Both the position numbers and the translations under genes were made by a program. Below, piece after piece: positions 6,775-20,000 of a stretch of 20,000 nt of DNA. The stretch covers positions 1,397,604 to 1,417,603 of the forward strand of contig NC_057719.1 of NCBI RefSeq assembly GCF_004010195.1. Reading direction: 5' to 3'. Under the pieces are notes generated by a model. That model saw only the letters and a program-made list of their open reading frames with translations, made no database searches and was not told the DNA's origin. Position 1 is the first letter of the stretch. The number at the start of each line of letters is the position of its first letter. The DNA is from Chiloscyllium plagiosum. Its lineage: Eukaryota.

Positions 6775-6834
6775 TTCCTGATGAAAGGCTTATGCCTGAA
6801 ACATCGATTCTGCTTCTCCTTGGATGCTTCCTGA
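6775..6834 (+). mobile_element. Short hammerhead-motif element (Penelope-terminus-like), truncated copy
   Basis: CTGATGA-a-AGGC-ttat-GCCT-GAAAC-ATC then gattctgcttctccttggatgct, as in the copies at 13174, 14758 and 19241. Confidence 0.8.
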
Positions 6835-13173: not shown

Positions 13174-13326
13174 GGAGCAGGAAGTGAGGACTGCAGATGT
13201 TGGAGATAAGAGACAAAAAGTGTGTGCTGGAAAAGCACAGCAGGACAGGCAGCATCAGAGGAGCAGGAGAATCAATGTTTTGGGCATAAGCCCTTCATCA
13301 GGAATGTGAGGCCACACTTTTTGACC
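13174..13326 (-). mobile_element. Short hammerhead-motif element with a small inverted terminal piece
   Basis: Minus strand: cattcCTGATGAaGGGCttatGCCCaaaacattgattctcctgctcc.. (core decayed at CpGs). 13313-13322 is inverted relative to 13214-13223. Flanks CCCATATAGAC (13160-13170) and CCCAAATAGAC (13327-13337). Confidence 0.85.
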
Positions 13327-14159: not shown

Positions 14160-15105
14160 TTTCAGGCTCTCCCTGTCCACCCTATCTAACCCCCTGATTA
14201 TCTTCTATGTCTCTATTAAGTCACCTCTCAATCTTCTTCTCTCTAACGAGAACAGCCTCAAGGCCCTCAGCCTTTCCTCGTAAGACATTCCTTCCATTCC
14301 AGGCAACATCCTAGTAAATCTCCTCTGCACCCTTTCCAAAGCTTCCACATCCTCCTTATAATGCAGTGACCAGAACTGTACACAATACTGTGGCTGTACC
14401 AGAGCTTTGTACAACTGCAGCATAACCTCCTGGTTCTGGAACTCAATCCCTCTATTAATAAAGGCCAAAACACTGTATGCCTTCTTAACAACCCTGTCAA
14501 TCTGGGTGGCAACATTCAGGGATCTGTGTACATGTGCCACCTCTCAGCCCAGCTCTGCATCCTTTCTATGTCTCTCTGCAACCTACTACATCCTTCGTCA
14601 CTATCCACAACTCCACCGACCTTAGTGTCATCCGCAAATTTACTAACCCACTCTTCTAAGCCCTCATCCAGGTCATTTATAAAAATGACGAACAGCAGTG
14701 GACCCAACACCGACCCTTGTGGTACGCCACCAGTAACTGGACACCAAGATGAATATGCTGAAAATGTGTTGCTGGAAAAGCACAGCAGGTCAGGCAGCAT
14801 CCAAGGAGCAGGAGAATCGACGTTTCGGTCATGAGCCCTCATGCCCGAAACGTCGATTCTCCTGCTCCTTGGATGCTGCCTGACCTGCTGCGCTTCTCCA
14901 GCAACACATTTTCAGCTCTGATCTCCAGCAGCTGCAGTCCTCACTTTCTCCACCAAGATGAATATGTTCCGTCAACTACAACCCTCTGTTTTCTTTCAGC
15001 AAGCCAATTACTGATCCAAACTGCTTTGTCTCCCACAATCCCATTCCTCCGCATTTTGTATAATAGCTTACTGTGGGGAACCTTATCGAACACCTTGCTG
15101 AAATA
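14160..15105 (-). mobile_element. Relatively young CR1 ORF2 fragment (RT domain), internal deletion near 14537, interrupted at 14758-14950
   Basis: FSKVFDKVPHSKLL..WISNWLAERKQRVVVDG / [32 protein letters not shown] / QIDRVVKKAYSVLAFINRGIE..LERVQRRFTRMLPG. Confidence 0.95.
14758..14950. mobile_element. Palindromic (head-to-head) copy of the short hammerhead-motif element, with 16-bp target duplication
   Basis: Arms 14757-14835 and 14838-14916 (79 bp, 3 mismatches); CACCAAGATGAATATG at 14742-14757 and 14951-14966. Confidence 0.93.
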
Positions 15106-15124
15106 TGATTTCTGAAGAATCTTA

Positions 15125-16000
15125 ATATGAATTTGGGTGGGAAAGTTAGACATGAGGGAGAAACAAGGACGCTACAGAAGAGTTTAGATAGGTCAAGTGA
15201 TTCAGTGAAAATGTGTAGGATGTGAGAAACTGTCCACTTTGATAGGGAAAATGAAAGAAAAAAGGAGAATATTATTAAAACTGGCATTCATGGTGAGCTG
15301 GTTGCACATGTAGATTAATCACAAAGTTTGCATGCAGATTCAGCAAGCAGTTGGGAAGGCAAATTGGATGTTGATTTTAATTACAAAACAGTTATAGCAT
15401 AGGAATAAAATGAGTGGTTTTGAAACTATGTAAAGCCTTGAGATCACATTTGGAGTATTGTGTAGTACCCAGGGTAATTAACAATGAGTAATGCTGGCCC
15501 ACCTAGTAAAGCCCTCATACCCTTAATGAATATAAAAATGTACTGTGTGATTGCCTCATTCAATGAACGATTTCCTGAAAGGGTTTTTACAGGTTTACCA
15601 CATTGATTGCTGAACCAGGGAGAGGTTAGGAATGATTTGAGTAGGTTAAGCCAATATTTCCTGGAGATTAGAAAAGTAGGAGACAACATTGTTGGAGCAG
15701 GTAAAGTTGTTATAGGGCTTGTTGGGCTGGATGCTGACAGGCTGTTTAATTGAATCTCTAACACGGATCACCCTCTCGGGGTAAGGGGCTATTCTTTTAC
15801 GTTTGGGATGATGAGAAATTTCAAGGTTGAAATTCTCTGGATGACCACAGCTTGCTTGAGTGGCCATTGAGAGAGTTTGACATTTTTAGATGGGCGATGA
15901 TGAGAAAAGGTGAAATTGAGATTGAAAATCAGTCATGATCATATTGATTCACAGAGCAAGCCTAAGGATCAAATAGCCTCCACTGCTTAGTCTCTGTTGA
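15125..16000 (+). mobile_element. Old degenerate CR1 3' fragment (with a short second-family tail at ~15470-15540)
   Basis: cagcaagcagttgggaaggcaaattggatgttg..agatcacatttggagtattgtgt..aatcagtcatgatcatattga parallel to 13740-13880 and 595-660. Confidence 0.7.
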
Positions 16001-16175
16001 ACTTAGTAGTGTGCTCACACTGTCCACAGCTGTTCCCACTGCCCATGCTTCTTAATATTTCTTCATACAGTCTGTCCTTTGTCAACATGGTAACCTTAGT
16101 TTTACATCCTTCTAAAAAAATCATACTTTAGTACTTTTTGTTCATTCACTTTGATTCTGAACTTTTATATTCCAG

Positions 16176-16256
16176 GTGCTGGTAAAGCTCCATCGCTGGG
16201 AACAGGGTTCCACACCAACCTTGGGAAGGAGTCACGTGCACAGACTTTACAGAATG
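16176..16256 (+). CDS. Candidate 81-nt internal exon of an unidentified host gene
   Basis: Unique, more GC-rich island; branch-like tctgaac, pyrimidine tract and CAG acceptor; ATG|gtaaat donor; length divisible by 3; two frames open. No protein recognised. Confidence 0.35.
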
Positions 16257-16359
16257 GTAAATGAGCAACAATTTTGACTTTTAGATGTCCTTGACTTGTC
16301 TTTTTCTTTCTTCCAGAACTGTTCATTGATCGTTTAATTAGAATGCTGTTTTAACATTG

Positions 16360-17355
16360 AATTTGTGCAAATGACATGAAGTTAGTGCAGTTGTGAATAG
16401 AGAAGAAGGTTATCAAAGGATACAGCTGGATGCAGAGTAGTTGGAAAGTTGCACAGAGAAATGACAGATGGAGTTTATTCCAGCCAACTGTGAGGAGATG
16501 CATCTTGGGAGGTCAAATGCAAGAGGAAGTTCTTCAGTAACTGGCAGAACCTTTAGCAGCATTGATGTACAGAGAGATCTTGGGTGCAAGTCCATAGCTC
16601 CCTGTATGTGGAAGCACAAGTGGATAAGCTGATAAATAAGGCATGTGACAAGCTTGTCTGTGAGGCAGCAGTGCTAACCACTGTGCCACCGTGCCACCCC
16701 AGATCTTGGGTGCAAGTCCATAGCTCCCTGTATGTGGAAGCACAAGTGGATAAGCTGATAAATAAGGCATGTGACAAGCTTGTCTTCATTGGTCAGAATG
16801 TTGTGTATAAAAGTTGGCAAGTCATGTTGCAGCTGTGTAAGATTTTAAGTTAGGCCACATTTGGAGTAGTGTGTGCAGTAACTGTTGCCACTCTATGTGA
16901 AGGATGTGGAGGTTTTGGAGACGGTGCAAAAGAGATTTACCAGGATCTTGCCCAGATTGAAATGTGGTAGGTATAAGAAGAGGTTTGGATTGTCTTTACT
17001 TGGATTGTTTTTATTGGAACATCAGAGGCTGAAGAAGGACCTGATCGAACTGTAGAAAATTGAGAGGCATAGACAGTGGAAAATTGGAATCTTTTTCCCA
17101 GGGTGGCAATATCAAATAATAGGGAGCGTAGGGGGCCTAAGGTGAGGGTGGGAAAGTTTAAGGAAGATTGCCAGGCAATGTTTTTTCAAATAAACTTGTT
17201 GGACTATAATCTGGTGTTGTGTGATTTTTAAGAAGCATTTGAAGGCAGAGAATATAGATTGATTAGAGGGGACTATATACAGGCAAATGTGATTAATTTA
17301 GAATGGCATCATGGTTGGTGGAGACATGTTGAACTGAAGGGCATTTTCCTGTGCT
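16360..17355 (+). mobile_element. CR1-clade LINE 3' fragment including tail
   Basis: WQMEF-like tgacagatggagttt, QRDLGVQVHSSL..QVDKLINKA..LVFIGQNVVYKSWQVMLQL; tail gaagggcattttcctgtgct. Confidence 0.9.
16575..16785. repeat. Perfect 85-bp direct duplication (16575-16659, 16701-16785) flanking an HE1 SINE 5' head (16658-16700, minus strand)
   Basis: Copies read identical base by base; the insert's reverse complement is ggggtggcacggtggcacagtggttagcactgctgcctcacag, matching 12325-12367. Confidence 0.95.
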
Positions 17356-17829
17356 AAATGTTCAGGGTTCTGTGTTTTGTTTTCCAATGTGATAGAGTCC
17401 TGGATGCACATAAATACTGAGGTTACCTTTCACTTTGACTGCAGTCTGTAGAGTGTTCTCTCAGTCTCTAATTGAATGAACTGACATTCGTATACGTCCC
17501 TTGTGGAATTAAGGCAAATTTGTTTTTTCATGGGTAGTGTGTTGTCACAATTCCAGTTGCTAGACTCCTGATTCTGTTCATTGAACAAATCTTTATCGTG
17601 TACAATACACTTCCATTGTGGACAGATTTAGAAAACTGATCCTGTGCTTTTTTTAAAAAACTCTAAATATTTTGCATCCTTCAATCTAACAGGAAGTGAT
17701 TTCTGTATGTGCACTGGCAGTTGTATCATGTGTTCTAAGTTTTGTCTATTTGTAATCTATTTATAATAATCTATGTGCATTTACTAACATTTCCAGTCCT
17801 GTCCATCAATCCACTCAAAACATGAAGCC

Positions 17830-18010
17830 TAGACTTGTCTCCCCAAAATACTGTGGATGGTGGGAGTTTGTTGAAATGTTACCCTCTGCAGATGGTAGAT
17901 TTTTTTAAATGCGTGAGTAGCAATGAAATGGAATGAAGTAAATAAATTGAATTAGGGTACGGGAAGCCATTGATCTAATTGAGTAGTAGAACAGGCATCC
18001 CGTGTTCATA
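17830..18010 (+). mobile_element. Very degenerate CR1 3' end
   Basis: gatggtagatttttt..agccattgatctaattgagtagtagaacaggc resembles 515-630. Confidence 0.45.
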
Positions 18011-18274
18011 AGCTAATTTGTTACATCACTGGAACAAAGAGATGATCTGCGCTGATTTTAAAAATTGTGTTCTCATGGCTGATGTTCACTGAGACAGCCC
18101 CAGGGCCTTGACAGCAGGAGAGGTTGATATTCTCAAGCTGGTAATAGGACCTGTAGGGTTAATCAGGCTCCTGCAGCTCCTTAAAGTGTAAGTGTTTGCC
18201 CTACCATTTAAGGCCATTTCTTTCCTGTCACTAGATAGCAATATCACAAGATAATTATGGTCAAGGAAACCTAT

Positions 18275-18492
18275 GAAAGAAAGACTTGTATTTGTACAAT
18301 TATGTTGTATTTTACAGCTTGTTGAAATACATTTAAGTGTATTCCCTGTAATGTCTGAAATACAGCAACCAATTTGCACATAGCAAGATTCCATAAATGG
18401 CAATATAATCATGAGCAAATATTTGTTTTAATGATGATGAATAAATATTAACCAATGGAGAAGCCAGTCAATTGGAGACAACTCCTCTGCTC
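18275..18492 (-). mobile_element. Deu-domain SINE, 3' part with tail
   Basis: Tail gaaagaaagacttgtattt; cagcaaccaatttgcacatagcaagattccataaa; aactcctctgctc. Confidence 0.75.
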
Positions 18493-19240
18493 AACAAAGG
18501 GCGAGGTCACATTAGATTTGGCATTGGGTAATGAACCTGGCCAGGTGTTAGATTTGGAGGTAGGAGAGCACTTTGGTGATAGTGACCACAATTAGGTTGT
18601 GTTTACTTTAGTGATGGAAAGGGATAGGTATTTTGCAAGGTTTGTGAAGGTTTGTAGCTCAGGTTGAGGTTTAGGGTGTAGGTTGGAATAGGCCACTGTT
18701 GGAATATTGCAAGAGTGCCAGGCCTCTAGGAATCCTCTCAGAAAACAGAGGAGAACCTCCTATACAATGTATTCAAGATGAACGGATACTCAAAAAATAT
18801 AGTCCGCAGATTCCTCAGGAACAAACAGACCAAACACAGCCAGAAACCCTAACCACCTAACCATACATCAAATAAGTTTCAGAAATGACAGCCAGACTAC
18901 TAAGACCCCTCGGAATCCTAGTAACAAACCCAGCAACACTCTCAAACAAAAACTAACAAACTTAAAAGACCCAGTACAACTCATGGACAAAACCAACGTC
19001 GTCTACAAAATTCCATGCAAGGACTGCCACAAACACTATGTAGGACAAACAGGAAGAAAGTTAGCCACCAGGATACACGAACACCAGCTAGCCACAAAAA
19101 GACACGATCCCCTCTCCCTCGTAGCCCTACACATGGAAGAAAAAAACCACCATTTTGACTGGGACAACACATCTATCCTGGAACAGGCTAAGCAAAGACA
19201 TGCCAGAGATCTCCTAGAGGCCTGGCACTCTAACCACAAC

Positions 19241-19333
19241 CCTCCTGATGAAGGGCTTTTGCCCGAAATGTCGATTTCGCTGCACCTTGGATGCTGCCTG
19301 AACTGCTGTGCTCTTCCAGTACCACTAATCCAG
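19241..19333 (+). mobile_element. Short hammerhead-motif element inserted into the Penelope ORF
   Basis: CTGATGA-a-GGGC-tttt-GCCC-GAAA-TGTC at 19245-19272; flanked by ACTCTAACCACAAC (19227-19240) and ACTCCAACCACAAC (19334-19347). Confidence 0.9.
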
Positions 19334-19498
19334 ACTCCAACCACAACGCCATAAACAAACACACAGATCTAGATACCATCTATCAACCCCTCAGAAAACG
19401 AACAGGAAATGACATCACCACAAACCCCAGGAATCCTATCCTGGACAAACATATAAATAGAAAGCAGGAGACAACAGCTTTGCTTCACTTGGAGGTCG

Positions 19499-19538
19499 CC
19501 ACTGATGATGTTACCTAGCCAGGTAATGAAACGTCTGG
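19499..19538 (+). ncRNA. Minimal type I hammerhead ribozyme in the Penelope 3' terminus
   Basis: Stem I CCA/TGG; core CTGATGA 19502-19508; stem II GTTACC-tagcca-GGTAAT; GAAA 19528-19531; palindromic ACGT stem III; GTC cleavage triplet 19533-19535. Confidence 0.85.
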
Positions 19539-19815
19539 ATATCAAACCTACAGCTCAGCGAGCAAACCCACCCTAAGGGATAGGTATATACACCGCAGGG
19601 CAAGAGTTATAGCTCAGGGAAAGGCAATTAGAATGCGATTAGGCAAGATTTAGGATGTGTAGGATGGGGAAGGAGATTGCAGGGATGGGCACAATTGAAA
19701 TATGGAGCTTATTTAAGAACAGCTACTTTGTGGCCTTGCTAAGTATGTACCTGTCAGGCAGTGATGAAGTAGTCGAGTGAGGGAGTGTGGTTTACTAAAG
19801 AAGTTGTATCTCTTG

Positions 19816-20000
19816 TCATCGAGACATAGAGATGTACAGCATGGAAACAGACCCTTCGGTCCAACCCGTCCATGCCGACCAGATATCCCAACCTAATCTA
19901 GTCCCACCTGCCAGACCCGGCCCATATCCCTCCAAACCTTTCCTATTCATATACCCATCCAAATGCCTCTTAAATGTTGCAATTGTACCAGCCTTTCCAC
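19816..20000 (-). mobile_element. HER1-like CR1 LINE 3' tail, running off the right edge
   Basis: catagagatgtacagcatggaaacagacccttcggtccaac..ggcccatatccctccaaacc matches 10631-10800 and 11719-11890. Confidence 0.92.

Follow-up and report, generated by a model that had tools for sequence, protein, structure and literature searches.

A minimal hammerhead in the 3' pseudo-LTR of a truncated Penelope-like insertion of the shark Chiloscyllium plagiosum: a probable fossil with apparent start and stop codon overlap

Minimal hammerhead ribozymes occur in thousands of copies per genome, mostly as single motifs, and are defined by a long stem II, one unpaired base before stem II, a palindrome at positions 15.2-16.2 and a highly conserved G10.1-C11.1 pair (Cervera and De la Pena 2014, PMC4209133, main text). 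A single motif from Schistosoma showed no detectable cleavage in that work, and dimers had low activity (PMC4209133). According to the literature, two repeats in one transcript of a live element would swap their palindromic ACGU to form stem III; alternatively, the element's own protein would aid the hammerhead fold. In the sections of Frangieh et al. (2024, PMC11167929) drawn on here, the motif of PAc, a Poseidon element of Anolis carolinensis, required the element's protein for cleavage, could be dispensed with for insertion in vitro, and had no RNA-seq reads ending at its site. An earlier sequence-only reading of the present locus had stated that Penelope-like elements carry minimal hammerheads thought to act as dimers, and the literature supports this; their role is called unclear in the part of PMC8557442 that treats it. 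Type I hammerheads in animal repeats, tied to Penelope pseudo-LTRs, are also found in non-LTR retrozymes, which have been reported in one chondrichthyan genome (PMC7229834; bioRxiv 10.64898/2026.07.22.740005, in the sections available).

Here, we analysed a 20,000-nt stretch of the C. plagiosum genome (the window), which carries a motif of this class (Table 1). Like the minimal hammerheads in the main text of PMC4209133, it has a type I core (CUGANGA, GAAA, UH) without stem III, a stem II of 7 bp (7-8 there), an unpaired base between 9 and 10.1, and a place in the pseudo-LTR of a single copy of a truncated element; it differs from them in its stem I of 3 bp, compared to 4-5, and in a G·U instead of a G-C pair. 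Sharks are not named as hosts in that main text, and the supplements, which list families by species, may include them; shark Penelope hammerhead families are apparently undescribed in the literature searched. As in PAc, the ORF begins where stem II begins and an AC-rich 'tail' is present at one end only; the cut lies 26 nt past the ORF start in PAc and after nt 28 here (A = 1). However, PAc is expressed, is arranged in tandem and encodes a full protein, whereas the shark copy is truncated, broken and single, and the shark copy has a stop codon in stem-loop II that the available text on PAc does not mention (PMC11167929). The inverted 5' pseudo-LTR, the tail at one end and the short target duplication are those of a typical Penelope insertion as outlined in PMC3846280 and PMC8557442, and so is the linker without CX2-5CxxC (PMC8557442); unlike the typical case, the inverted piece is internally deleted here and its hammerhead is lost. 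Retrozymes, as described in the sources above, are tandem and non-coding and need two motifs, whereas here one motif lies in a coding remnant; a non-LTR retrozyme identity was rejected upon finding a single unit within a coding remnant bounded by a duplication. We consider the motif to be a minimal hammerhead of the Penelope/Poseidon type that lies in the 3' pseudo-LTR of a 5'-truncated insertion and is now probably an inert fossil, with a probability of roughly 0.8. The shark families add a host and not a kind, and the locus, as one decayed copy of an abundant repeat, matters little by itself.

Table 1. Positions of the hammerhead motif, its host insertion and overlapping features in the window
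Feature	Position	Strand	Evidence
Minimal type I hammerhead motif	19499..19538	+	Sequence reading, shuffles, folding
Putative start codon ATG (A9 + extra U + G10.1), terminal-repeat copy of the element's start codon	19508..19510	+	Frame; anole parallel; N-termini of P0083, P0026 and P0040
TAG stop codon of the RT-endonuclease frame (...TDDVT*), spanning the top of stem II and loop II	19516..19518	+	tblastn, shark proteins
Position 11.1 = T, G·U in place of G-C	19527	+	Folding; ancestral base inferred
Target-site duplication, left copy, 13 bp	18619..18631	+	Sequence; empty-site joint
Target-site duplication, right copy, 13 bp	19575..19587	+	Sequence; LINE continues from 19588
Inverted, internally deleted terminal-repeat piece at the element's 5' end	18632..18730	-	Repeat match, joints
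5'-truncated ORF remnant, linker and GIY-YIG endonuclease	18730..19518	+	tblastn
Short repeat of 93 bp from another family, nested in the remnant, with decayed minimal hammerhead	19241..19333	+	Pattern scan, joints

Anatomy of the motif and its closing pair

All 13 core positions of the motif, together with U16.1 and C17, were unaltered: the CUGAUGA box (19502-19508) is followed by the unpaired extra U (19509), and GAAA (19528-19531) is followed by CG (19532-19533), U16.1 (19534) and C17 (19535). Stem I has 3 bp (CCA 19499-19501 with UGG 19536-19538), and folding allows a further 3 bp beyond a 2×2 loop. Seven base pairs are possible in stem II (19510-19516 with 19521-19527, loop AGCC), and the palindromic ACGU at 19531-19534 (positions 15.2-16.2), which encloses 2 nt, replaces stem III. 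The sequence-only reading had thus placed each base of the catalytic core correctly, as it had the 3-bp stem I, the extra U after CUGAUGA and the reduction of stem III to self-complementary ACGU, and its predicted cut 3' of C19535 is at the right site because this base is C17. Its stem II of 6 bp has to be lengthened to 7 bp, with G19510·U19527 as the closing pair. None of 1000 dinucleotide-shuffled windows contained a motif with a stem II of at least 6 bp and a stem I of at least 3 bp, and a looser hammerhead pattern matched twice in the window versus a mean of 0.04 in 200 shuffles. The fold energy alone was unremarkable (z of -1.81 for the 40-mer and 0.02 for 81 nt). The covariance-model search that had been proposed as a check came back negative, with no Rfam hammerhead match at E ≤ 10 in 15000-20000 or 19440-19600, and a pattern scan found no hammerhead motif on the minus strand. 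The motif is a real minimal hammerhead of the class published in 2014. The nearest other hammerhead core is at 19245, 257 nt upstream on the same strand.

The motif had also been called intact, which holds for the core bases and is overstated for the 10.1-11.1 closing pair, which is G·U and not the usual G-C. Stem II was predicted at -5.4 kcal/mol with the G·U pair versus -6.7 with C, a penalty of 1.3. If the ancestor had a C at 19527, this was a CpG site, because G12 comes next, and U at 11.1 is probably CpG decay (C to T) from an ancestral C that we infer rather than read. The commonest differences of related copies from this stretch were T>C and A>G in all four runs, an excess that is expected if CpG decay struck this copy; the individual difference rows covered were 40 of 156, all of them outside the motif. 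In the window's other hammerhead family, the copies at 6778 and 13304 have lost the equivalent CpG by decay. Judged from amino acids, 2 of 39 relatives' N-termini imply U at 11.1, so a G·U pair at 10.1-11.1 may be tolerated, and the codons of the flatworm protein P0040 imply a change from U-A to C-G at 10.2-11.2. No measured rate for a G10.1·U11.1 hammerhead variant was found in the literature searched.

The host insertion and its family

The insertion spans 18632-19574, lies inside a LINE and is flanked by a 13-bp target-site duplication. We take the flanking LINE to be CR1-like. The empty site was seen among related LINE copies as the joint 18628>19587 in four of four runs, and since the LINE resumes past the right duplication, there is no downstream tandem copy. 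The long contig from a related species extends to 18520, short of the insertion. In the inverted piece, 18711-18730 is the reverse complement of 19211-19230, and 18632-18684 is the family's 3' 'tail', which is missing at the right end of the insertion; the tail joint 18684/19564, between opposite strands, was found in four of four runs. The inverted piece lacks a hammerhead, and this copy has a single sense-strand terminal repeat, which holds the motif. About 22 bases of LINE-like sequence (18689-18710; inverted match 834-871, joint 16836>18689) fill the deletion in the inverted piece, possibly as the result of a template switch.

The ORF remnant is interrupted by two in-frame stops, by frameshifts and by a nested insertion, and it matched RT/endonuclease proteins with 44-85% identity; its match to PF01541 (GIY-YIG) had an E value of 0.00092 at 19.9 bits, which does not reach the cut-off of 22.6. 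The closest proteins were from carpet sharks (12 of the 16 found belong to Stegostoma, Chiloscyllium or Hemiscyllium), and close proteins have PF00078 upstream of the endonuclease, the RT being missing from this copy. Protein matches and insertion structure together confirm that the motif sits at the 3' end of a Penelope-like element, as had been proposed, and the in-frame stops, frameshifts and 5' truncation bear out that the ORF is dead. A CX2-5CxxC zinc finger was absent from the linker of all seven relatives with an endonuclease anchor (eight examined) and from the window's linker translation. Absence of the Neptune-type zinc linker points to the Penelope/Poseidon type, and a truncated insertion of this type would carry the hammerhead as a copy in its 3' pseudo-LTR. 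The closest named non-shark relatives (P0010, P0040 and other flatworm proteins) belong to trematode and cestode elements, at ~50-56% identity. In addition, this endonuclease sequence forms the end of annotated shark isoforms for MAP3K7, CUEDC2 and a third gene (P0006, P0011 and P0016), which reflects either exonisation of Penelope fragments or faulty annotation.

The two bins that cover the motif had a summed contig depth of 371,000-922,000 in three DNA runs, compared to 12-40 in unique bins; this measure is not copy number, and a depth four orders of magnitude over unique sequence indicates a very abundant repeat. Related copies differed by ~10% in the motif region, a level like that of the remaining element (16/156 and 15/139 letters). 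The family's DNA patterns had no match in metagenome contigs or viral contigs, and an endonuclease search of viral contigs gave no confirmed locus among 48 candidates. The 93-bp repeat nested in the remnant is flanked by a 14-bp duplication (19227-19240 and 19334-19347), and the insertion-free joint 19226>19334 was present in four of four runs; the repeat entered the endonuclease end later than the element. Its own hammerhead, with the core at 19245, has AUGU instead of ACGU and a stem I of 2 bp only.

A putative start codon and a stop codon within the hammerhead

The frame that opens with the ATG inside the motif is open to 19573 and starts MLPSQVMKRL; this ATG is a putative start codon. The 'extra U' would then be part of the start codon, an arrangement shared with the anole element and a coding overlap that the earlier reading had missed. 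At the other end of the element, four of the six shark proteins that reach the TDDVT* motif also stop there. In a Chiloscyllium protein, residue 19 begins the stretch MSPRQGTKRL, and in the phmmer alignment its Met matches the first residue of a relative of 832 residues, which begins MSSRLVTKRL. Codon 7 has 11.1 as its second letter, so that Thr at this codon means C at 11.1 if G12 is kept. An N-terminal region was present in 39 of the 277 proteins examined; with patterns that were picked after the first matches had been seen and that concern amino acids only, without DNA, the C type (M-x(3-8)-[TAPS]-K-[RC]) was found in 5 of these 39 versus 1.2% of internal windows, and the U type ([MVL] at the same site) in 2 of 39 versus 0.7%. 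P0083 is a sixth C type, which the count of five lacks because its window ended too early.

One frame of the inverted tail reads QPELQTF, which compares with PELQIF in one relative and PELPVF in another, at residues 26-27; joined by hand, the tail joint sets QPELQTF in the ATG frame at residue 27. When all 1,654 Met positions were ranked by an ungapped Met-anchored score, P0040 came third and P0083 fourth, behind two internal chance matches, so that this score is weak by itself. When its N-terminal 92 residues were used as the query, P0083 was the sole match. Start and stop signatures are both carried by the relatives' proteins; at the level of sequence, the signature appears to extend over sharks and at least one flatworm, and it would concern the live family rather than this fossil copy. 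In the literature searched, including the accessible text of PMC8557442 and the PAc supplement text, no mention of the stop-codon overlap was found.

The motif would be shaped by a double use: A9-U-G10.1 would serve as start codon, residues 1 to 10 would be encoded by stem II together with GAAACG, and the frame coming from upstream would end at stem-loop II. With the stop within stem-loop II and the ATG upstream of it, the stop in a tandem RNA would lie 8 nt past the beginning of the next start codon, with the cut in codon 10. It is conceivable, if rather unlikely, that in a live Penelope/Poseidon branch the hammerhead is a translation switch and not a unit-length cutter. If so, the upstream stop within the hammerhead could couple termination to re-initiation in tandem RNAs, and if cleavage is also protein-dependent as in the anole, the protein would sever the AUG from its own message as a feedback brake. 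With the start codon inside it and the cut a short way past that codon, such a motif would have a testable role in translation control.

Cleavage, transcription and neighbouring repeats

A monomer of this motif cannot form stem III, because A15.1 and U16.1 enclose two bases, and in the minimum-energy monomer G5-G8 pair with the cleavage strand, the open-core fold having a probability of 0.002. In a nearest-neighbour model that omits tertiary terms, the double hammerhead had -13.5 kcal/mol, two monomers -19.8 and the best dimer, which is inactive, -27.3. The probability of stem I dropped with context from 0.83 (81 nt) to 0.09 (351 nt). The published monomer negative concerns one Schistosoma motif, from another family than the shark copy. 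The core is whole and the G·U pair still forms, which weighs against an inert reading. Nevertheless, the proposal that this copy could still self-cleave appears doubtful, given a monomer that is inactive and dimers that are weak in print, the lack of a cis partner, the G·U pair and a predicted fold that sequesters the core. At this locus the start codon would lead nowhere, a cis partner is absent and 11.1 has probably changed from C to T, so that negligible cleavage would be expected in vivo.

Cleavage of this copy could still occur in vivo through trans pairing with family RNAs or with the help of a live element's protein, in which case crossing transcripts would be nicked. The unaltered core and the protein-assisted motif of the anole (PMC11167929, in part) are in line with this, as is the presence of family-like RNA: 2,380 reads from ~2% of one poly(A) single-cell run matched 16050-19750, with a depth of ~24-38 near the motif. 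However, only 84 of the 2,380 reads were at least 99% alike, and the depth in unique bins of the same sample was zero. No read-end pile-up was listed for this sample, which is poorly suited to cleavage ends. The inactive dimer fold is far more stable than the double hammerhead, and the anole protein was found to bind within the first 172 nt of the ORF (PMC11167929, in part), whereas only 67 nt follow the ATG here. On balance, such cleavage seems improbable. An effect on plus-strand transcripts had been suggested as well, but no host transcript over the motif was seen in this ~2% sample, which is weak evidence and does not exclude one. A search for RNA data sets containing 15100-19700 listed none, a result that says nothing about expression.

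Pairing within one transcript with the hammerhead of the nested repeat, 257 nt upstream, would provide an accidental tandem. Both motifs are on the same strand, and AUGU with ACGU could give 4 bp with one G·U; but in a heterodimer each 5' stem I arm must pair with the other's 3' arm, and the first pair is mismatched in both combinations, the second combination being mismatched at its first three pairs, and stem I of the upstream motif has 2 bp only. This heterodimer was rejected on the stem I mismatches and is very improbable. Domestication of the motif by a host gene, like that of the conserved intronic hammerheads of amniotes, has known precedents (PMC6155905, in part), and upstream on the plus strand there are two exon-like stretches bordered by AG and GT, but it is hardly credible here: the conserved closing pair is altered, stem III and the tertiary loop contact are absent, and the motif region has diverged between related copies like the rest of the element. 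Neither exon-like stretch (16176-16256 and 17797-17894, the second behind a TACTAAC branch-like motif) had any RNA depth in the ~2% single-cell sample, and the second has a 4-nt insertion in a related species. For 16176-16256, one frame had no PDB match and two frames gave only SERTA at E 0.1 in Pfam; 17797-17894 had no Pfam match. With no convincing domain and no RNA depth in that sample, we do not assign these stretches to a host gene.

The nested repeat belongs to a second family of short repeats headed by a hammerhead (19241-19333; 6775-6833; 13174-13304 on the minus strand; 14757-14954), which has duplications of 11-18 bp and no coding part; all five copies in the window have a decayed or truncated motif. 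This family had very high depth in the DNA runs and the top RNA depth within 16050-19750. At 14757-14916, two of its 5'-truncated copies in head-to-head orientation form a palindrome of 79 bp (96%, arms 2 nt apart), which sits in one 16-18 bp duplication (14742/14951) and resembles Penelope inverted junctions. Finally, a perfect 85-bp direct repeat at 16575-16785 surrounds a 41-bp short-repeat fragment (16660-16700), and it is either a target duplication of unusual length or a feature of the local assembly.
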